This document shows, piece by piece, positions 21,587 through 52,755 of a stretch of 64,000 bases of DNA (positions are counted from its first letter, which is position 1; every line of letters starts with the position of its first letter). The notes under the pieces were generated by a model. It searched no databases. It worked only from the letters and a program-made list of their open reading frames with translations, and was not told where the DNA came from. This DNA comes from a virus (taxonomy: Duplodnaviria; Caudoviricetes): the IMG/VR virus record IMGVR_UViG_3300033073_001027, positions 38,114-102,113 of that record; one strand, 5' to 3'. The position numbers were made by a program, and so were the translations under genes.

Positions 21587-22396
21587 TTAAAAAAGATCTT
21601 CAAGTGAAGATTCAACCTTCTTATACTTCTTGTTTCGATCATGCAGTTTCAGTTCTGCATGCCCAGTCGACTCACGAATATACATCGTACACAGTTCTGG
21701 GAAAGTATCAGCAATAATCTTGACGCTGTCATAGACATACTGCTTGGTTCGGAAGTCTTGTAGTCCACCTTCTTCCTTATAGTATCGCGACTTAACAGTA
21801 TAATCGTCTAGACGAACTAGAACACCATTCTTAATATACTGGCGAATAGAATATTCGTAGTCTTCACCGTGATTGGTAATACGAGCAAGGAAGTCATCAT
21901 GCTCAACAATAACACCAAACATAGAAGCAATGATATAACAGATGTCGTTATAAACACGGTGCTTCATAAAATATGCATTAGCAGCAGCATAGATACCAAA
22001 AGTCTTAGCACCTACCTTGTCACATTCCTCGAAACCACGAAGAATAACTTCCTTCTCCAGATCCTCGACTCGACCCAACTTCTGTTCGCTAATCTTTACC
22101 TGAACTTCTTCAATGTCATCATCGAACATCATGAGACGAGTTCCCTCAGGATACCACTTCTCGATAAAATTGCGCTGAGCACCAATGGTCGGAACTCCAC
22201 GAATAATCTCAATATCCTTTGCGTAAGGATTATCCTTCAACGCATTGGCATAGCGATCATATTCACCTTCTTCCTGATCATTAACAAAGATCTTAATCTT
22301 GGCAGGATCAATGTTATACGACTCAAGAACCTTCAACGTCTTATTCTGAACAGTCTTTTCACGATGATAAGACGGGATGGCAATACAATAATCCAT
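21587..22396 (-). CDS. TET-associated (GREB1-like, GT-A) glycosyltransferase
   Basis: IAIPSYHR, MMFDDD, GEDYE; coupled to TET/JBP gene. Confidence 0.75.
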   Translation of the reverse strand: MDYCIAIPSYHREKTVQNKTLKVLESYNIDPAKIKIFVNDQEEGEYDRYANALKDNPYAKDIEIIRGVPTIGAQRNFIEKWYPEGTRLMMFDDDIEEVQVKISEQKLGRVEDLEKEVILRGFEECDKVGAKTFGIYAAANAYFMKHRVYNDICYIIASMFGVIVEHDDFLARITNHGEDYEYSIRQYIKNGVLVRLDDYTVKSRYYKEEGGLQDFRTKQYVYDSVKIIADTFPELCTMYIRESTGHAELKLHDRNKKYKKVESSLEDLF

Positions 22397-23772
22397 TAAA
22401 ACAAATCCTCCAATGACGATGTTACTTCATATGCTTTAGGGTGATACTTCTCAACTGTTTCTCGACCCATCTTTTCTTCTAGGTAGTCATACCATTCTTG
22501 TTCATCCCACATTCCAGGCGATACGCCATTCCAAAGTGGGCGATAATACTTATGCTCGTGGTTGCTTCTGCGATCTACAACATACTGCTCCCGAGTTGTT
22601 TCGTATTCATACGATCCAAGTTCCAACATGTTCTCGCGGAAATAGCAAACGAGCGAGATACGTTCTGCTTCTGGATTATTTAGAACGATCTCAGTGTTAC
22701 CGTGCATAATTTCATGATTGTTAACAAGCAGCAGATCTCCTGGGCGAACGTTTACTGCGATACGATATTCAGGAAATACTAGATAACCACCAGTATAATC
22801 CCCGCTACCGACAACAAGCAGATTGCTGAGACCATCGTCAAGATCGCCAGCATCTCTGTGGGCAGCAGTACGGAACGACTTGTTGACTGTGATAGTTGTA
22901 AATACGGTTCCTGGGACAACAAACTTCTCATCGATTCTGTCGACTGCTGCTTTCTGATTCCCCCAACGCCATGGGAGTAGTTCCTTGAAACCTCTGTCAA
23001 GAGACTGTAGAAAAGGAAAGGAAAGGCGAAACTTATCAAAATTATCGCGAGTGTAACTAGTAGCACGCCCAAAAGGAATTCTCGGATAACGATCGTACCA
23101 CCCAGCAACACCTGAGAAAACCGACTTCGCATAGTTTGTGGTTGAGATCCACTTGGTGGCAACGATTTTTGCTGCATCTACAATTTCTTCCTTAGACTTT
23201 CCATCAAGACTATCGACCCACTTGTCGAACCATCCGAAATATTCTGGATATACCTTACATACCTGACTACGCAACCAGACTGCGCCACGAGTTTCATCTG
23301 CATTCGAACGAGGCGCACCTGCATACTTAGCACGAATGCTTTCGATTGATACGTCTTCGATCAATCTTCCGCTAGTATCCATCAGGAAATCGAGCATCTC
23401 GAGTTCGTAATCAGTTACCCAGTCACGGCCGCCACGACCCTCTACGCCAAGAATCTCACCGCGAGGACCAGCAGCAAGTCCACGATTCTGCGATTCGGTT
23501 GCTGCTTCTCGCAGTCCGAGATATGCCTGATCCTGTTCTTCCTGAGTAAACCAGTTCTTACGAAACTTGAATGCGATTCGTCGCTCATCAGTGCCAATAT
23601 CGCAATCACTACAATCTTTATCGCATGAAACTTTTGTGTCAAGACCACAGTCTGCTTCCATATAGCAGTCGGTATCTTCATTGATCACAACATCAAAGTG
23701 ACTCTCATCTAGATATTGACCTAGTAGGTGTTCGCAGTCGAGTTTAGACTCTGCGACAATAACTTTTACCAT
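22396..23772 (-). CDS. TET/JBP-family 2OG-Fe(II) dioxygenase
   Basis: TAAHRDAGD (HxD), MHGNT (H), RISLVCYFR. Confidence 0.8.
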   Translation of the reverse strand: MVKVIVAESKLDCEHLLGQYLDESHFDVVINEDTDCYMEADCGLDTKVSCDKDCSDCDIGTDERRIAFKFRKNWFTQEEQDQAYLGLREAATESQNRGLAAGPRGEILGVEGRGGRDWVTDYELEMLDFLMDTSGRLIEDVSIESIRAKYAGAPRSNADETRGAVWLRSQVCKVYPEYFGWFDKWVDSLDGKSKEEIVDAAKIVATKWISTTNYAKSVFSGVAGWYDRYPRIPFGRATSYTRDNFDKFRLSFPFLQSLDRGFKELLPWRWGNQKAAVDRIDEKFVVPGTVFTTITVNKSFRTAAHRDAGDLDDGLSNLLVVGSGDYTGGYLVFPEYRIAVNVRPGDLLLVNNHEIMHGNTEIVLNNPEAERISLVCYFRENMLELGSYEYETTREQYVVDRRSNHEHKYYRPLWNGVSPGMWDEQEWYDYLEEKMGRETVEKYHPKAYEVTSSLEDLF

Positions 23773-42467: not shown

Positions 42468-42480
42468 ATAATCATATTAT

Positions 42481-42532
42481 ATAGTTGAGAGACTAACCAT
42501 GGTCTCTCGCGTGCTTATTAAGTAGCAACCCT
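42481..42532 (-). ncRNA. Small structured intergenic element
   Basis: GAGAGAC/GTCTCTC hairpin plus GGTTG/CAACT pairing. Confidence 0.35.
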
Positions 42533-42535
42533 AAC

Positions 42536-42639: not shown

Positions 42640-43521
42640 TTATCTTAAATAATTATCACTTAATGTACTATCAAAACCCAAATAAGTCAACCAATTTTTA
42701 TACAATTTTTTTGATCCGTCATCCATCATTGCACGCACTGACCGATGAATACCATGAGTATAACTCTGAAGAAACTCACACCGTTCTATCTGCTGTGCGA
42801 TGTAATCCTTTACAGGAATGCTTGTATCAATCTCGTGCTCATTGAGTGCACTTGACATCCATTCTTTTGGATCGTCATACTCCTCTGGGTTGACATAGAA
42901 CCAGTAGAGGTGGTATTCTGATCGCGGAACATGATACATTTCAGATGCAAAAAACATCTTTTCGATATCAATCTCATCATAAATCTTGCGACTAATCTCA
43001 GTATTCATGACGAATGGCGATTCACATGCACCACCACAGAACTTATCAGGGATCGGCAACCCAGTTTCTTGGGAGATATACAGCAACCAATTTCGCATAA
43101 CATGCAGTCGTGGAAGTGTCATGACTTCCTTTGTATCTCTATACCGTCCACTACCATGACGTAACGGGAGATCATCAAAGTCGATAGTGCGAACAAAAAA
43201 GTTCTTGCTGTCCAGCGACAGATATCGCTCCGAGGTGACCAACTTTGATGCTGCAAACGAGAGAACCTGTTGCCGCCTCCACCCATACGTAAAGGGAGCA
43301 GAAAACTCCTCGTCACGATTATCTCGAATTGAAAAGGATAGATTTAATTGGTGTTTGGTATAGAATGGGGATAGAATGTCTTCCCATTCTGTCAGGGATA
43401 GGGAATTGTCTTCAACAATCACCCAATGCTTCGCAGGTTTCTCGACATACTTATCGATTGAATGTGCCTGTAGCATGATTTCATTAATGTCTCGTTTACA
43501 GACAACAGTTACAAGTTCCAT
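42640..43521 (-). CDS. DUF6492-like (GT-A-type) protein
   Basis: GWRRQQ, LDSKNFF; paralog at 44084. Confidence 0.6.
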   Translation of the reverse strand: MELVTVVCKRDINEIMLQAHSIDKYVEKPAKHWVIVEDNSLSLTEWEDILSPFYTKHQLNLSFSIRDNRDEEFSAPFTYGWRRQQVLSFAASKLVTSERYLSLDSKNFFVRTIDFDDLPLRHGSGRYRDTKEVMTLPRLHVMRNWLLYISQETGLPIPDKFCGGACESPFVMNTEISRKIYDEIDIEKMFFASEMYHVPRSEYHLYWFYVNPEEYDDPKEWMSSALNEHEIDTSIPVKDYIAQQIERCEFLQSYTHGIHRSVRAMMDDGSKKLYKNWLTYLGFDSTLSDNYLR

Positions 43522-43612: not shown

Positions 43613-43849
43613 TTAAAGTCCTACTGCATTCTTATATGTATCGAGAAGTGCTTCTTCTTCCATGCGGACATGTGCTTCCAACTTGCGCAGACGGATAATC
43701 TGACGAACAGTCTTGGGAACATACCCAACTGACTTCAGTTCCGAGTAGACTTCCTTGCGGTCAATCTTCTTCTCTTCCAGTTCTGCCTCGATCGTTTCGA
43801 TACGAGTAATATACTGCATAAGTTCTTCACTGATAATTTGATCGCTCAT
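43613..43849 (-). CDS. gapR: GapR/DUF2312 nucleoid-associated protein
   Basis: YITRIE.IE.E...D.KEVY.ELKS.GY..K.VRQIIRLRK..EE..LLD.Y. Confidence 0.85.
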   Translation of the reverse strand: MSDQIISEELMQYITRIETIEAELEEKKIDRKEVYSELKSVGYVPKTVRQIIRLRKLEAHVRMEEEALLDTYKNAVGL

Positions 43850-43867: not shown

Positions 43868-43945
43868 TGGAGTGACGGGTGGGATTTGAACCCACGGTTT
43901 TCAGGTTTTGCAGACCTGTGCATTGGACCACTCTGCCACCGTCAC
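43868..43945 (-). tRNA. tRNA-Cys(GCA)
   Basis: U73, CCA. Confidence 0.9.
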
Positions 43946-43946
43946 G

Positions 43947-44018
43947 TGGTACCAGCAGTAGGTAACGCTCCTACCAAACCAACCTTATGAGAGTCGGTCG
44001 AACACTTGTTCTGCTGGC
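43947..44018 (-). tRNA. Non-canonical tRNA, anticodon CAU
   Basis: 7-bp acceptor, no U8-N9 linker, 4-nt D loop, 6-bp anticodon stem, T loop AGCGTTA, CCA. Confidence 0.65.
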
Positions 44019-44019
44019 A

Positions 44020-44093
44020 TGGTTGTCTCGGGAAGAATCGAACTTCCATCTACCGATTATCAGTCGGTTGCTCTACCGTTGAGCTACGAGACA
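44020..44093 (-). tRNA. tRNA-Ile(GAU)
   Basis: Cloverleaf, CCA. Confidence 0.9.
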
Positions 44094-45028
44094 AAACTCG
44101 TTGGATTCATATAATTATTTACTAACTCACTATCAAGACCCAGGGAAATCAACCAGTTTCCATAAAATGATTTAGCATTTTGCGGAAGATAATTTCTAAT
44201 TCCACTATGTATGCCATGAGTTGGACTATTAATATCTACACATTGATTTATTGAATGCTCAAGAAATTGGGCATGATAATTTTCATCATCCGTATTTGTT
44301 GTAATCTCAAACCTTGTATTGGTAAAGGGATCAGTTCCCTGAGCAATTCTATAATTATCAATTGCAGGGCAAACTAAATTCTGAGGTTCATCATAATCCT
44401 CTTCATCAACAAAGAAATAATAGTAATCGCATTCTCCTGCTGGAACAACTCCATCATTGTTCATGAAAAGAGTTTCGAAAAGTGGATGATCCGTTGCCTT
44501 TCTACATATCTCTTTGTTGAAAACAAATGGTGTTGGCATTGCTCCTGGTAGTCGCGGAGGCATTTTCATACCAGTCTTAGATACTACATAATGCATCCAT
44601 TTTCCAGCAGGAAAACGTTCATCAAACCCGTAATGGTATCTGCCGTTGCCATGTTTAAACGGCCATTGGTCGAGATCAGTAGGACGGACAAATATATTCT
44701 TGCAATCAAGAATCAATGCACTTTCACCAAAAACCTGTGATGCTACTTGCAACTTTAACATTGCCGATCTTCGCCATCCAAATCCTTTAGTTTCAAACAT
44801 TCCAGTATGAGGAACAAATTCAGGATTTTCTGGACGAGGTACGGAAGTTAAAATCAACTCATGTTTTGTATAAAATGGAGAGAGTATCTCATACCATTTA
44901 TCCAATGATAATGAGTCATCTTCAATAGTCACATAATGTCGACACGGAGAAACGAATTTATTGATAGTATGTGCTTGTAGAACAATATCAGCAAGATCTT
45001 GTTCACAAACAATAGTAACTATATCCAT
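44084..45028 (-). CDS. DUF6492-like (GT-A-type) protein
   Basis: GWRRS..LKL, LDCKNIF; paralog of 42640. Confidence 0.6.
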   Translation of the reverse strand: MDIVTIVCEQDLADIVLQAHTINKFVSPCRHYVTIEDDSLSLDKWYEILSPFYTKHELILTSVPRPENPEFVPHTGMFETKGFGWRRSAMLKLQVASQVFGESALILDCKNIFVRPTDLDQWPFKHGNGRYHYGFDERFPAGKWMHYVVSKTGMKMPPRLPGAMPTPFVFNKEICRKATDHPLFETLFMNNDGVVPAGECDYYYFFVDEEDYDEPQNLVCPAIDNYRIAQGTDPFTNTRFEITTNTDDENYHAQFLEHSINQCVDINSPTHGIHSGIRNYLPQNAKSFYGNWLISLGLDSELVNNYMNPTSFVS

Positions 45029-45206: not shown

Positions 45207-45282
45207 TGGTAGACGAGGAGGGACTCGAACCCCCAACCTAATCCTTATGAGGGATCAGCTCTAACCATTGAGCTACTCGTCC
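45207..45282 (-). tRNA. tRNA-Ile2/Met(CAU), probably Ile2
   Basis: CT-CAT-AA loop; body resembles Ile2. Confidence 0.85.
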
Positions 45283-45869: not shown

Positions 45870-45898
45870 ACTCTACCCCATTTTCGCGAAAATGTCAA
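45870..45898 (-). promoter_or_regulatory. Early promoter
   Basis: GGGGCTTGACA-N17-TAGAGT, palindromic spacer. Confidence 0.8.
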
Positions 45899-47181
45899 GC
45901 CCCATTTTTTAAAAAATATCGTAATTGATGAAGATTTATTTTTGTCTCGGTTGTCCAGGTTTTCTTGTCTAGATGGTGTATTTGATATCGACAATCTCGA
46001 GAGAAATGACAATCTTCCCAGAAAACAATGTGGTCATCAATGACAGTCAGATCTTTTCCAGTGACGTTACGTAGAACCTCTTCAGTAACGTTCTTTTCCA
46101 GTCTACCAAAGTGACTCCAGGTTCCGTCAGAGCGAGGACTGATATAATCTTGAAGAACTACACCTTCAAATGTAGGTCCAGACACCTCTACTAGACAGGT
46201 TTGCGGAGACCATTGCATTTCATAGAAGTAATCTGGTTCTCTTCCCAACCAGTTAGGAATATACTTCGAATCTTTCGTGACATGATTCAGCAGCAATGGG
46301 ATGCCTGTATCTACTGAACCATAATGCGACATAAACTCTACGTTGTGCTTAGCACAGTAGTCGATATATTCTTCTGGCACCGTGTATCCACTGATATTAA
46401 TCTTTGGTGCAACGTCAAACACAACATCAGAAGCAATCATATCCTCTACCACAAAATGACTACCAAAGAAAACTTGATCAATTTTCTTTTCCTTCATGAA
46501 TGGGAAGAACCCTGACATGTTATGGTAGATATTGTAGTAGTAATGCTTGGATGCTACCATGAGAGAAGGCAACATGAACGTTAACATACAACTGACATGG
46601 TGCATGTTTCGGGTATGGCAAACAACAGATTCCTGAGTAAACCCAAACACACTGATATTTCTGTTCGCGAGAGAATAACAATCCTGCTGTGTAAACTCTA
46701 CGATCTTACCTTCGCTGGTGGTGCCACTGGTGGAACCGCAAACGTACACATCATTCATGTCACCATGAATTTCTGTATACTCGCCTGCGTGCGCAAGGAT
46801 CTCTTCTTCCATGATATTGACAGTGCAATATCGAGCAACCATCTCGGCGTATGCCGCATTTGCTTGCAGATATTCATCCATAACATGATAGTCGATTGGC
46901 GCGAATAATGCTGCTTTGGTGGCAGGAACAGTCTCCATACAGACAGGTTTGTCTAGTAGAACAAGACGCATTCCCAATTCACCTGCAGCAAATACGAGAG
47001 CAAGATGATTCGGGCTGACCATAACAAGTGAAATGCCAAGAGAGTTTCCCCTCTTGGCACCACGATTGACCAATAGAGATTTCCATCGGTCGATCAGAGA
47101 ACAGAACCCAATCCTCGACAGTACATTTCCAAACTCGTCTTCATATGTAAATGTCGAAGGAATTAAATTCTTATTGATCAT
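45895..47181 (-). CDS. Adenylate-forming (ANL superfamily) enzyme-like protein
   Basis: STSGTT..KIV, HYGS, D..FGR, TKI; KPVCMETV.ATK shared with paralogs. Confidence 0.75.
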   Translation of the reverse strand: MINKNLIPSTFTYEDEFGNVLSRIGFCSLIDRWKSLLVNRGAKRGNSLGISLVMVSPNHLALVFAAGELGMRLVLLDKPVCMETVPATKAALFAPIDYHVMDEYLQANAAYAEMVARYCTVNIMEEEILAHAGEYTEIHGDMNDVYVCGSTSGTTSEGKIVEFTQQDCYSLANRNISVFGFTQESVVCHTRNMHHVSCMLTFMLPSLMVASKHYYYNIYHNMSGFFPFMKEKKIDQVFFGSHFVVEDMIASDVVFDVAPKINISGYTVPEEYIDYCAKHNVEFMSHYGSVDTGIPLLLNHVTKDSKYIPNWLGREPDYFYEMQWSPQTCLVEVSGPTFEGVVLQDYISPRSDGTWSHFGRLEKNVTEEVLRNVTGKDLTVIDDHIVFWEDCHFSRDCRYQIHHLDKKTWTTETKINLHQLRYFLKNGA

Positions 47182-49322
47182 TAGAACCTCGCACGAATGG
47201 TAGCACCATAAGTCACAGGGTCATTGAATTCACCAGTAACGAGCGGTGGCCCAAGAATAATCGCTGAGCGGATAACACGTTCATCAAGAACATTTCGTCC
47301 CCAAACAGAGAAGTCAAGATTTTCATTGACCTTATATTCAGCACGCAGATTCAGCATGTTATTGGCAGCAGTTGTATGCGCATCAAAAATCTTTTGAGCA
47401 GCAACTGGACCAAACGATGCAGCGAAGGAAGAAAGTGGTGTGTTAGACTGAGGAGTCTTATCTGTCCATACGTAATTTGTATAGAGAGTCAGACGATTTG
47501 TCAGATCATACTTCACATCGGCAGTAAACTGCTTGCGAATTGTCATGTTAAACCGACTATCAGTCAGATTGGCACCAGTTCGTGCGTCGATAAACTTGTC
47601 ATAAGTTGGGTTGACAAGAAGACCATTCAGAGTGACACGCAGTCGATCAGTTACCTTAGCAGAAACAGTTGCTTCACCACCCCACGCATGGATCTTTGCC
47701 GCATTACGGACAATGTTCGATGGATATGGAGAGAAGAGAACAGAACTGATCTGAACATCATTCGATTCGTTGTAGAATCCAGCGATGCTGTATGTCACAC
47801 GTGGAAGTTCACCCTTGATACCAACCTGATATTCAGTAATTGTTTCTGGTGAGAATGCCACAGCAGTAGCACTATCCCAACCACGAGGATTCAGACCACC
47901 TGAACGATAACCAGTCGAAACCTTCGCATAAACCATATTCGAATCATCAATATGGTAGTCTAGACCAGCAGTCCAAGAAACCTTATTAAACTTTTCTGAA
48001 TACGTAACTTCACACTTGTTTGCGAAAACTGCAGTGCGATATGTGCATGCTCGAGGCGCAAGAGTTCCCTGTGTCAGAACGTAGTTATTGGTGACTGCAT
48101 CCTTGGCATCATGCGTATAGCGGATACCACCATTGACAGTGACAGGACCAATATCATAAGAGGCATTACCGAACGCACCATATGACTGGTTGGTACCACT
48201 ATACCTCCAATTTACGCCCATGAACGACCCAAAGTTGAAGTCTGGGAGCAAGTTGTCATACCCATATTCCTTGAAATAGAACGCACCAGCAACATACTTC
48301 AGATTGTCACCGATCTGACCATTATACTGCGCCTCGGCAGTCCACTGAGCAATATTCACATCACTCAAAGTACGAGCATTGGGGGCAGCATAACCATCGT
48401 AATCGATTGCCTGCGCAACCTTAGTGCGACGCCATCCACCAGTCAACTTGAAGTCACCGATATTAGTAACCGAAGAGATATTGGTGTATGAAGTATCAGA
48501 TGTCGGTTGGAATGAGGTGGAATACGACGAACGAGGAGTCAGCGATCCATTGACTGGTGCAGGTAGAACTGCTTCTAGCAGCAGTTGCTTGCCATCCAAC
48601 GAAGTCGACTTATAACGCTCGACTGAAACAACAGTGTTCACACCAGCAAACGGTTCATAGAGAACCTTGCCGCGAACCGCATAACGATTCTTGTTGTTTA
48701 GATCGGTGCCACGAACAGAATCCTTTGCCCAACCATCACGAGTAAAACGAGTACCAGCAAGACGGACTGCGATAGTATCAGAAACAGGAACATTGACAAC
48801 ACCAGTTGTCTGCAGTTCGTTGAATCGACCATACGATACTTCTGCATTACCACCAAGTGTGTTCAGTTGCGGATCATTGGTATTGATCAGAACAGCACCA
48901 CCAGTAGAGTTGCGACCAAACAGAGTTCCCTGTGGTCCATAAAGAACCTGAACATTCTTAACGTCAAGAAGTGTTCCGTTCATACCGAATGTGCGAGCGT
49001 AATATACGCCATCAACATACACACCAACTGCGCCATCGATCGACATGTCAGATGAAGTTTGCACCTGACCATGCATTGCGATCTGGAGAGTTTCTGTGTT
49101 AATAATTGCTGATCGTGAAGAGAATCCAGGAATATCATTCGTCGTTACAGCAGAACGAGCACGAAGTTCTTCTGCATCTACCACACGAACTGATACAGGA
49201 ACATCCTTGAGATTTTCCTCTGTCTTACGAGCAGTAACGATAATACTATCCGATTCCTCGGCATATGCAGCAGTGCTAATTGCTGTTGATGCCAGCAATG
49301 CAATACCAATTAGTTTATTCAT
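47181..49322 (-). CDS. TonB-dependent outer membrane receptor
   Basis: Signal peptide, TonB box DSIIVTARK, LYGPQGTLFGRNSTGGAV plug, NVLD, terminal Phe. Confidence 0.95.
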   Translation of the reverse strand: MNKLIGIALLASTAISTAAYAEESDSIIVTARKTEENLKDVPVSVRVVDAEELRARSAVTTNDIPGFSSRSAIINTETLQIAMHGQVQTSSDMSIDGAVGVYVDGVYYARTFGMNGTLLDVKNVQVLYGPQGTLFGRNSTGGAVLINTNDPQLNTLGGNAEVSYGRFNELQTTGVVNVPVSDTIAVRLAGTRFTRDGWAKDSVRGTDLNNKNRYAVRGKVLYEPFAGVNTVVSVERYKSTSLDGKQLLLEAVLPAPVNGSLTPRSSYSTSFQPTSDTSYTNISSVTNIGDFKLTGGWRRTKVAQAIDYDGYAAPNARTLSDVNIAQWTAEAQYNGQIGDNLKYVAGAFYFKEYGYDNLLPDFNFGSFMGVNWRYSGTNQSYGAFGNASYDIGPVTVNGGIRYTHDAKDAVTNNYVLTQGTLAPRACTYRTAVFANKCEVTYSEKFNKVSWTAGLDYHIDDSNMVYAKVSTGYRSGGLNPRGWDSATAVAFSPETITEYQVGIKGELPRVTYSIAGFYNESNDVQISSVLFSPYPSNIVRNAAKIHAWGGEATVSAKVTDRLRVTLNGLLVNPTYDKFIDARTGANLTDSRFNMTIRKQFTADVKYDLTNRLTLYTNYVWTDKTPQSNTPLSSFAASFGPVAAQKIFDAHTTAANNMLNLRAEYKVNENLDFSVWGRNVLDERVIRSAIILGPPLVTGEFNDPVTYGATIRARF

Positions 49323-49541: not shown

Positions 49542-49617
49542 TGGTACGGGGTGACGGTCTCGAACCGCCGACATTCTGCGTGTAAAACAGATGCTCTACC
49601 AACTGAGCTAACCCCGC
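49542..49617 (-). tRNA. tRNA-Val(UAC)
   Basis: Cloverleaf, CCA. Confidence 0.92.
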
Positions 49618-50048
49618 ACAACGTGGTCTGCAGCATGCGTCGCAGCAAATGATTCAGGTTTAATCTTAGCATCTAGACCAAGAGTTCCTTTAACGTAACC
49701 AAGTGCTTCTTTCACTGCTACATTACTCTTATACTTCGGATTTGGATTAATGTCAAGGTGAATTTCTAATTTTCTTTCACCTAAAACGTCTAAAATTTGT
49801 GTTGCTGCTTCGATTGCGAAACCTGCTTCAGTAATTAGACGCTGACGTAAGTTACCAAAATCTCTCATCTCGATATTCTTATGAAATATCCTAGCACCAT
49901 GCTTGGAATCCATGTGAAGAATAATTACCGTTGAGTATTTGGCATACCAATGCCCATCTTTGCGTTTGAATCTAATGGAATCGGCACCAATATAAACAGA
50001 TGACGTTTCACTAGAGTTTAGAATTGCTTCTCTTGCTGCATCATACAT
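49608..50048 (-). CDS. RNase H-like YkuK/DUF458 protein
   Basis: YIGADS, RL.TE, EIHLDIN, KP.SFAATHAAD. Confidence 0.85.
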   Translation of the reverse strand: MYDAAREAILNSSETSSVYIGADSIRFKRKDGHWYAKYSTVIILHMDSKHGARIFHKNIEMRDFGNLRQRLITEAGFAIEAATQILDVLGERKLEIHLDINPNPKYKSNVAVKEALGYVKGTLGLDAKIKPESFAATHAADHVVRG

Positions 50049-50227: not shown

Positions 50228-50308
50228 TGGAACCCTCGACAGGACTCAAACCTGCATGTAATTCAGTTAACCTTTCCACTCGTTCGTAGCGAGAGGGTAT
50301 ACGAGGGT
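50228..50308 (-). tRNA. D-armless tRNA-like RNA, anticodon ACG (Arg)
   Basis: ACCCTCG/CGAGGGT acceptor, CTCG-CTACGAA-CGAG arm, ~23-nt extra region, T arm, CCA. Confidence 0.6.
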
Positions 50309-51260: not shown

Positions 51261-51270
51261 ATAAAAGAGT

Positions 51271-51403
51271 GACCACCCGCAGTGTGCCTTGATCGCTTAC
51301 TTCCGGACGTCGCGATCTTCCCAGGTAATCAACCACTGTTGCAACAGCAATTAACTACCACTTCCTCTATGTGGCAATGCCACGGGGTTCAGCAGGGGTG
51401 GTC
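51271..51403 (-). ncRNA. Unassigned multibranch structured RNA
   Basis: GACCACCC/GGGTGGTC closing stem plus three internal hairpins. Confidence 0.55.
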
Positions 51404-51408
51404 TATAC

Positions 51409-51484: not shown

Positions 51485-51494
51485 AATGAAAAAA

Positions 51495-51588
51495 ACTTAT
51501 TAGAAGAATACACTGGCGACAATATTAGCGACCTTTGCTCTTATCATCGGGACGGTCATGCGAGGACCAATGTATTCATCTAATAAGT
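51495..51588 (-). ncRNA. Unassigned RNA closed by ~22-bp AT-rich stem
   Basis: acttattagaagaatacactgg / ccaatgtattcatctaataagt. Confidence 0.5.
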
Positions 51589-51590
51589 CT

Positions 51591-52450
51591 TGTGAACCCT
51601 GAGATTACAGGTTCTAGTGAGTGCCTTTGGCCATTACCGAGTCCCTTGCGAGGATCGTTCTACCGTTATCCACTAAAGTCCTTTCGGATTCTCTAGTATC
51701 ACTCAGTGCTGCCTTTTTTGAGTGGTGGCGTATCCACTATCATGCTACGCTATTCGTCCCTCAATCTTCCGTCTGCCTTGCGAGCAGTTCGGTTCCGCTA
51801 AGAACCTACGTCTTCAATCCGAACAATCACATCATCCTTGCGGGAATCCGTGAACCCAATTCACATTCGTGTCAGGTATTAAGCACCTTTCACGTAGCAC
51901 TGGAGCAGACTTTCGCTTTTTCTATGGTTGCATCGACAGGGATCGAACCTGCTACCTACATATCCTAAAGATGTTGCTCTACCGATGAGCTACAATGCGA
52001 AACCTACCAAGAAGTGCTGCTCCAGTTGCTCCATACCTTGTTAGATACAGAATACAACACTCCTCATGTCTTTCTCCTTGCGGGATACTCAACCTTGCTT
52101 CAAGTCTCCCCTCATCGGTTCAACTCTTGCAATGCCTAACTGCCTTCTCACGCGAATGATCAGACTAGTCGACTATCCGTTAGCATTCAGCACTCATAGG
52201 TTTGGTGCGTTACAGTTCGACCACCACAGTCTCTTGGAACTCAACGATCGTCTCTGTTCCTATCCTTTCGGACTATAACACCTACTTACTGCCTACCGCC
52301 ATCCTATTGACGGAGGATGCTTTCGCACAATGGCGAGTCATCCTTTGCTCGGACTTGTATAGATAGACCATCACTGGCGCAGTTACGTAGGAGTCCCTGC
52401 TTTGGGCACGTTACCGTGCTTATCTTAACGACGCTATACCGCCAATCACT
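51591..52450 (-). ncRNA. GOLLD-like giant structured RNA
   Basis: ~860 nt without a credible ORF, own promoter, inside tRNA array, many C-GCAA-G and C-GAAA-G tetraloops, 3' CCTGTAATCTCAGG; recalled resemblance to GOLLD. Confidence 0.7.
51925..51999 (-). tRNA. Atypical tRNA (anticodon UAG, type I body) embedded in the GOLLD-like RNA
   Basis: Cloverleaf with C1:A72 and C31:U39 mismatches, CCA. Confidence 0.7.
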
Positions 52451-52680: not shown

Positions 52681-52755
52681 TGGTTGCAGAGGTCGGATTT
52701 GAACCGACGACCTTCTGGTTATGAGCCAGACGAGCTGCCACTGCTCCACCCTGCG
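52681..52755 (-). tRNA. Initiator tRNA-fMet(CAU)
   Basis: C1:A72 mismatch, GGAGCAG D arm, CCA. Confidence 0.9.

Follow-up and report, generated by a model that had tools for sequence, protein, structure and literature searches.

Among the closest described counterparts of the element reported here are tRNAs of archaea and of mitochondria. In the tRNA-Pyl of Methanomethylophilus alvus, which belongs with the class of PylRS that lacks an N-terminal domain, the D stem follows the acceptor stem without an intervening nucleotide, the D loop is 4 nt long, the anticodon stem is elongated, the variable region is short, and both G18-G19 and T-psi-C are absent (PMC7609411). Mammalian mitochondrial tRNA-Ser(UCN), a type I mitochondrial tRNA, combines a shortened acceptor/D connector with a small D loop and a 6-bp anticodon stem (PMC7609411). 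Non-standard cloverleaves have also been mined from metagenomes in phage arrays, namely the (8/4) tRNA-Ser and tRNA-His of alphaproteobacterial phage clusters (PMC5389517). We have examined a phage tRNA gene with the anticodon CAU, referred to below as the compact tRNA(CAU), for which an architecture like that of tRNA-Pyl or of mitochondrial tRNAs had been proposed. Its geometry indeed matches both the tRNA-Pyl type and mitochondrial tRNA-Ser(UCN) (PMC7609411), and each feature of M. alvus tRNA-Pyl listed above recurs in it.

Unlike M. alvus tRNA-Pyl, which carries CUA, the compact tRNA has CAU in all of its members, is of phage or bacterial and not archaeal origin, and presumably serves MetRS. 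Furthermore, its 6-bp anticodon stem is unbroken and its T loop, AGCGUUA, is common to many tRNAs of ordinary size. The likeness to tRNA-Pyl is one of architecture only, and we claim no sequence homology. Mitochondrial tRNA-Ser(UCN) departs from the compact form in having one connector nucleotide, in keeping G18-G19 and T-psi-C, and in its anticodon and compartment. In the (8/4) phage tRNAs it is the acceptor/T split that is altered, whereas the compact tRNA keeps the 7/5 arrangement and alters the D arm, the length of the anticodon stem and the elbow. With the canonical bacterial elongator tRNA-Met it shares the CUCAUAA loop, A73, C3-G70, the 7/5 acceptor/T helix and a paired 1:72; however, it is without U8-N9, its D loop is 4 nt long instead of 8-10 nt, its anticodon stem has 6 bp, A54-G55 stands in for T54-psi55, and its first pair is G.U or A-U. 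We came across neither the AGCGUUA elbow nor compact phage Met tRNAs in the literature searched, the coverage of which was partial, and novelty is not thereby proven.

The gene lies within a window of 64,000 nucleotides (bases 38114-102113) of a 102-kb IMG/VR virus record that is by estimate ~59% complete and has 41% G+C (Table 1). From its 5' end, the 7-bp acceptor stem runs into the D arm with no 8-9 linker, and there follow 2 nt, the anticodon arm, a 4-nt variable region, the T arm, A73 and CCA. The minus strand reads exactly as the original prediction had described it, that is, with no 8-9 linker, a 4-nt D loop without GG, a 6-bp anticodon stem and no TTC. The claim that every stem is fully paired also holds, in the sequence and in the RNAfold cloverleaf, when G.U pairs are included (one at 1:72 and two in the anticodon stem). 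This cloverleaf is the minimum-energy structure found by RNAfold (-26.7 kcal/mol, z -2.97, with 1/200 shuffles as good). As in cloverleaves generally, there are four arms, a 7-bp acceptor stem, a 5-bp T stem, a 7-nt anticodon loop, U33 and a purine at 37. The elbow nucleotides G18, G19, T54 and psi55 are not present, and equivalents of C56 and R57 alone are kept.

Table 1. Compact tRNA(CAU) gene, its parts and other features of the phage record (window positions, except for the tmRNA gene).
Feature	Position	Strand	Remarks
Compact tRNA(CAU) gene	43947-44018	-	72 nt with encoded CCA; proposed elongator tRNA-Met; fold, covariation and own covariance model
Acceptor stem, 5' strand (positions 1-7)	44012-44018	-	G1.U72 wobble; double changes in 7/7 pairs
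D arm	44000-44011	-	4-bp stem abuts acceptor stem, positions 8-9 absent; tetraloop AAGU invariant
Anticodon arm	43979-43997	-	6-bp stem and 7-nt loop CUCAUAA; anticodon CAU at 43987-43989
T arm	43958-43974	-	5-bp stem; loop AGCGUUA (43963-43969) replaces T-psi-C-R-A
Acceptor stem, 3' strand, with discriminator A73 and encoded CCA	43947-43957	-	A73 and CCA invariant in 22-member alignment
tRNA-Ile(GAU), canonical	44020-44093	-	Upstream neighbour, 1 nt off; ARAGORN; Rfam 74.9 bits
tRNA-Cys(GCA)	43868-43945	-	Downstream neighbour, 1 nt off; ARAGORN, Rfam
Canonical CAU tRNA, Ile2 (lysidine) type	45207-45282	-	A3-U70, C4-G69; rules of PMC1635315
Canonical initiator tRNA	52681-52755	-	C1xA72, A11-U24, G12-C23; rules of PMC1635315
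Non-canonical tRNA-Arg(ACG)-like gene, unannotated	50228-50308	-	In 87-nt gap between tRNA-Pro and tRNA-Gly
GOLLD RNA, full-length	51596-52065	-	RF02032, 190 bits, E 1e-52; inside tRNA array
tRNA-Leu(UAG)	51925-51999		Embedded in GOLLD RNA
Multi-helix intergenic RNA, 148 nt	51261-51408	-	z -3.5; 76-86% identity in related loci; no Rfam family matched
Long hairpin, 111 nt	51485-51595	-	z -5.4; immediately 3' of GOLLD; no Rfam family matched
Variable segment, 67 nt	42469-42535		In gap between tRNA-His and tRNA-Ser(GCU); 7-bp hairpin
Protein genes among the tRNAs	42640-43521, 44084-45028, 45895-47181, 47181-49322, 43613-43849, 49608-50048	-	
458-aa protein, uncharacterised PHROG	22396-23772	-	Weak match to queuine tRNA-ribosyltransferase
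Permuted tmRNA gene	G000:C1:31367-31745	-	Same record, outside window; ARAGORN; tag peptide ANDNDVAFALAA

Standard tools pass over this gene. The bacterial mode of ARAGORN made no call at default or lowered thresholds, and there was no match to the Rfam tRNA model RF00005 even at E<=10. The metazoan-mitochondrial mode of ARAGORN does label it, as mtRNA-Met(cat). The D arm drawn by that mode, with a 2-nt linker and a shorter stem, was rejected, because among the relatives described below the zero-linker 4-bp stem is paired in 100% of cells and shows double changes in four of four pairs. Our own covariance model (R1), built from the 22-member alignment, scored 90.3 bits at the compact tRNA(CAU); elsewhere in the window it found only ordinary tRNAs, at 9-28 bits.

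The fold is strongly conserved in uncultured phages. An exact search of IMG/VR with the 19-nt anticodon arm returned 25 contigs, in which the D, T and acceptor stems have undergone compensatory changes and neither the D loop AAGU nor the T loop AGCGUUA has altered. The compact CAU pattern as such was found in at least 119 IMG/VR contigs, the wider pattern searches of that database each giving at least 119-120 matches. An alignment was made of 22 distinct members with a zero linker, of which 17 come from phage contigs (some of them much more divergent) and five from Verrucomicrobiota assemblies. Standard pairs fill 98.6% of the 484 stem cells and both sides have changed in 20/22 pairs; none of 500 shuffles reached this, and partners slid out of register paired in 21-45% of cases. 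Covariation extends to every pair of the acceptor, D and anticodon stems, the invariant pairs being the two loop-proximal G-C pairs of the T stem (the equivalents of G52-C62 and G53-C61). Columns 12-14 of the D loop do not vary, and column 15 is conserved in at least 90%. The anticodon stem is paired in 100% of cells, with double changes in six of six pairs; in its loop, columns 28-33 do not vary and column 34 is conserved in at least 90%. We rejected the 8-bp anticodon stem that RNAfold draws, since the two added pairs are 74% paired compared with 68% after sliding by one column. The T loop is identical in all 22 aligned members as well as in the 25 anticodon-arm loci; U33, CAU, A37, A73 and CCA are invariant among the 22, A38 is present in at least 90% and C3-G70 in 21.

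Because of this covariation in 22 relatives, we regard the zero-nucleotide connector, the 4-bp D stem and the 6-bp anticodon stem as real. The original prediction had argued from the full pairing of the stems for selection rather than decay and for an alternative tRNA fold, and had proposed that homologues be collected and examined for covariation; with compensatory changes now seen in all four stems, and with slid controls so far below the observed pairing, both arguments are upheld. By contrast with IMG/VR, blastn against 50,697 deposited phage genomes returned no homologue of either the compact tRNA(CAU) or a compact relative with a 1-nt linker, and a search with 1.1 kb of flank gave generic tRNA matches only.

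The loops of the compact tRNA(CAU) have a wider distribution than its compact core. Among the loci fetched we counted at least 261 distinct tRNA-like sequences with an AGCGUUA T loop, covering ~25 anticodons and including long-arm (type II) tRNAs. Their D loop is without GG in 93% of cases and has A-A-G (or U-A-G) instead, whereas GG is present in 87% of 3,174 ordinary tRNAs from the same loci; in the subset found without any requirement on the D loop, 47/49 were GG-less. What the original prediction had not brought out is that the D and T loops of the compact tRNA(CAU) are not simply degenerate, but are an invariant, coupled pair common to a large family. AAGU and AGCGUUA look like the two halves of a coupled alternative elbow, in which a contact resembling G19-C56 could probably survive, with U54, U55 and A58 replaced. 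The compact tRNA(CAU) belongs to a large, apparently undescribed tRNA family of uncultured phages.

The compact D arm itself (a linker of 0-1 nt and a loop of 4-5 nt) was seen in 72/103 CAU tRNAs with this elbow, compared with ~0 of ~160 others, in the loci fetched. In non-CAU members the 8-9 linker is normal and the D loop has 7 nt, and ARAGORN often calls them. A search for UAU counterparts of the compact form turned up none; the tRNA-Ile(UAU) that it found had the alternative elbow and ordinary-sized D loops. The compact form thus appears to be tied to methionine-accepting tRNAs. MetRS recognises chiefly the CAU anticodon and A73, independently of the D arm or the elbow, so that a compact D arm nearly confined to CAU tRNAs is a sensible arrangement and fits an identity set that ignores the tRNA core.

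The alternative elbow also occurs in cellular assemblies. Long, mixed tRNA arrays that contain it are found in Verrucomicrobiota (L228-L346), including the isolate Chthoniobacter flavus. These arrays hold compact CAU tRNAs that are initiator-like in having C1xC72 and a GGG/CCC anticodon stem, and in several of their alternative-elbow members C33 replaces U33. A lone tRNA-Val(GAC) with the elbow is present in single-cell genomes of Pelagibacteraceae (L236, L252, L270), and the same tRNA is found in gut alphaproteobacterial MAGs (Alphaproteobacteria loci L231, L246, L266 and others). In one Pelagibacteraceae locus it sits among transhydrogenase, TonB-receptor and radical-SAM genes, a setting that is unlike a prophage, and there the tRNA is apparently a housekeeping one. 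As ~25 anticodons use the elbow, this lone tRNA-Val(GAC) among them, it appears to be compatible with ordinary translation.

Which CAU tRNA, then, is the compact one? In bacteria, C3-G70 marks tRNA-Met or initiator tRNA, and G3, A3, C70 or T70 mark tRNA-Ile2; C4-G69 and C5-G68 are frequent in Ile2, and A11-T24 with G12-C23 marks initiators (Silva et al., 2006; PMC1635315). The compact tRNA(CAU) has C3-G70, A4-U69 and G5-C68, so it carries the Met-type 3-70 pair and none of the Ile2 marks. Initiator marks are likewise missing, in that 1:72 is paired, the D-stem pairs vary and there is no GG/CC run at 29-31/39-41. It had been suggested that the other CAU tRNAs of the window look like fMet and Ile2, which would leave this gene as the only candidate for the elongator. 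Their acceptor and D-stem marks agree with this (Table 1), and within the record both C3-G70 and the elimination of the other two CAU tRNAs bear out the conclusion; the rules used come from canonical bacterial tRNAs, from which those of the host may differ, and the elimination applies to a record that is ~59% complete. In blastn against the 50,697 deposited genomes, the best CAU-tRNA matches of the Ile2-type gene are labelled tRNA-Met in Providencia phages; these are depositors' unrefined labels and for that reason were left out of the identity call.

A similar picture emerges from the related loci that we examined. There, canonical Ile2-like CAU tRNAs are found next to compact CAU tRNAs in which 1:72 is paired, and a canonical initiator may or may not be present; the Ile2-like companions have A3-U70, or else G3-C70 together with C4-G69 and C5-G68. 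A canonical elongator tRNA-Met with C3-G70 was called in only one of 53 paired-1:72 locus entries, and no other CAU tRNA at all was called in 19 of them. Some relatives also have a called tRNA-Ile(UAU), and because of this the bookkeeping of the AUN box is not uniform.

We therefore favour, with moderate confidence, the reading that the compact tRNA(CAU) is a functional phage elongator tRNA-Met with a remodelled core, a putative assignment made from sequence. The gene would be transcribed within a polycistronic tRNA array and freed by the tRNA-end machinery of the host, since its 7+5-bp acceptor/T helix is intact and CCA is encoded. Host MetRS would then load it with methionine, and EF-Tu would bring it to internal AUG codons. 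Even a tRNA without a D arm was accepted in E. coli translation (PMC11551756); this, together with the geometry of M. alvus tRNA-Pyl (PMC7609411), suggests that the compact core is in principle no barrier. The weak G1.U72 or A1-U72 pair is unusual for an elongator and counts against this assignment.

It is unlikely, in our view, that the compact tRNA(CAU) is instead an AUA-reading tRNA-Ile2, with C34 lysidinylated by TilS and the tRNA charged by IleRS, which would make the gene at 45207-45282 the elongator. The CAU anticodon alone is ambiguous and the determinants of TilS vary between lineages (PMC1635315); a CUCAUAA loop with A37 and A38 suits either Met or Ile2, and an AUA reader is to be expected in an AT-rich phage the called tRNAs of which mostly have U34. 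Against this stand the near-constant C3-G70 of the aligned members, their lack of C4-G69 and C5-G68, and the published Ile2 marks borne by the canonical companions. In addition, TilS (PF01171) was not found in the 102-kb record, itself incomplete; nor were formyltransferase (PF00551) and peptide deformylase (PF01327).

Another improbable reading is that the gene encodes a tRNA-shaped RNA with no part in translation, acting as a decoy or sponge for host tRNA-targeting nucleases or modification enzymes, or helping to process or regulate the array. The absence of G18-G19 and T-psi-C is consistent with such a role, as is the failure of both bacterial ARAGORN and the Rfam tRNA model, and some non-canonical allo-tRNAs are inactive in translation (PMC5389517). 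Precedent of another kind lies in phage tRNA clusters. Stable non-tRNA RNAs do occur in them, as in the tRNA region of T4. However, every stem covaries, and the anticodon loop, A73, CCA and C3-G70 change hardly or not at all, which is the pattern of a tRNA that is decoded and charged; the gene fills an elongator-Met slot that is otherwise empty in these arrays; and the same elbow serves whole sets of isoacceptors.

The elongator assignment can also be set against a second, phage-specific initiator, in which the weak 1:72 pair would permit formylation and use of the P site. Among the 22 aligned members 1:72 is G.U in 11, A-U in three, G-C in two and U.G in one, and is unpaired in the five from Verrucomicrobiota; in the close subfamily it is always weak (G.U or A-U), and ~1.5% of bacterial initiators have A1-U72 or U1-A72 (PMC1635315). 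Furthermore, there is a sister compact class, mostly with a 1-nt linker, in which 1:72 is a true mismatch (CxA, UxU, GxA or AxA). Where other CAU tRNAs were called beside it, they were up to two canonical ones of the paired-1:72, elongator type, and a canonical initiator was called in one such locus only; this class, the D stem of which is without A11-U24, seems to take the place of the initiator in other phages, a point in favour of the initiator reading. Nevertheless, we consider that reading very improbable for the gene described here, as a canonical initiator is already encoded at 52681-52755, A11-U24 and G12-C23 are not conserved in a D stem whose pairs vary freely, the G29-G31/C39-C41 run is absent from the anticodon stem, and more distant members have G1-C72. 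Finally, a decaying pseudogene or chance hairpins in a spacer, in line with the lack of any call by tRNA finders at bacterial settings, can be dismissed, for the idea is refuted by the covariation, with so many matching contigs, pairing kept through double substitutions and invariant loops.

The setting of the gene is that of an extended tRNA array. ARAGORN called 24 tRNA genes in the window, all on the minus strand between 42.3 and 53.0 kb, with protein genes in between, and the compact tRNA(CAU) exactly occupies the gap between tRNA-Ile(GAU) and tRNA-Cys, leaving a 1-nt spacer on each side. In 19 of the 25 loci with the same anticodon arm, tRNA-Cys likewise comes after it, 0-6 nt away. Contigs from RNA libraries (two freshwater metatranscriptome runs of one study) span 43875/43895-44023 at 90-97% identity; they derive from relatives of this phage, and DNA carry-over is possible. 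The end at 44023 that these contigs share is the point where relatives have another upstream gene, and the contigs attest neither a transcript nor its ends.

Several other features of the array deserve mention. GOLLD and two strongly structured intergenic RNAs lie among the tRNA genes (Table 1), and the 67-nt segment at 42469-42535 is absent in some related phage contigs and 96% conserved in others. The interleaved protein genes encode two DUF6492 paralogues, which flank the sub-cluster holding the compact tRNA(CAU), an AMP-binding-like protein, a TonB-dependent receptor (Plug and barrel), a GapR-like DNA binder and an RNaseH-like PF04308 protein. Such a receptor is unusual in a phage, and it suggests a Gram-negative host. 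The 458-aa product encoded at 22396-23772 may be a deazaguanine DNA- or tRNA-modification enzyme.

A second odd tRNA gene is the tRNA-Arg(ACG)-like element at 50228-50308. Its acceptor stem has 7 bp, its T arm is canonical, CCA follows U73, and the loop of its anticodon hairpin is CUACGAA. It is without a normal D arm; instead, there is a 3-bp helix around the anticodon hairpin and then a 14-nt single strand, which in relatives holds the D-loop-like GUUGGAUA. An exact pattern for the element gave zero IMG/VR matches, the relatives having come from blastn of fetched loci; it is kept in 10 other IMG/VR loci, with compensatory changes in 15/19 predicted pairs. Arginine is the sole amino acid missing from the called tRNA set, and is probably served by this element.

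The original prediction had further raised the possibility that the unusual fold evades host tRNA nucleases. T loops are cut at UUC by a Schlafen nuclease associated with type III CRISPR, and cleavage is lost on a single change of U54 or U55 (PMC13462974); since these residues are needed, a tRNA with A54-G55 should resist enzymes of this class. As the driver of the compact tRNA(CAU), nuclease evasion is possible but not supported, and three observations tell against it. Its T loop AGCGUUA is the only one among the tRNAs of the window (the 24 called, the compact gene and the tRNA-Arg-like gene), so that a single altered T loop is present; the same elbow occurs in an apparently housekeeping cellular tRNA; and a UC step is retained in the anticodon loop of the compact tRNA(CAU) itself. 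A broader idea, which we offer tentatively and regard as rather unlikely, is that compact CAU tRNAs and the AAGU/AGCGUUA elbow represent a parallel and structurally distinct tRNA lineage of uncultured phages and bacterial arrays, the Met and initiator members of which would be invisible to host enzymes and defence nucleases keyed on U8, G18-G19 and U54-U55, such as Schlafen-type nucleases that cut the T loop. If this were true, phage translation would continue while host tRNAs are cut. The compact tRNA(CAU) in any case offers a concrete substrate for asking whether phage tRNAs escape nucleases directed at the T loop or the elbow.

In summary, the compact CAU tRNAs are a natural and abundant tRNA class in a bacterial setting that combines a tRNA-Pyl-like compact core, an alternative elbow and a methionine anticodon. 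They could be exploited as natural scaffolds for the engineering of orthogonal tRNAs, and they test how much of the tRNA core is needed by MetRS, EF-Tu, RNase P and the ribosome. Furthermore, as standard annotation overlooks the class, the tRNA complements of phages are under-counted in the Met and initiator slots.
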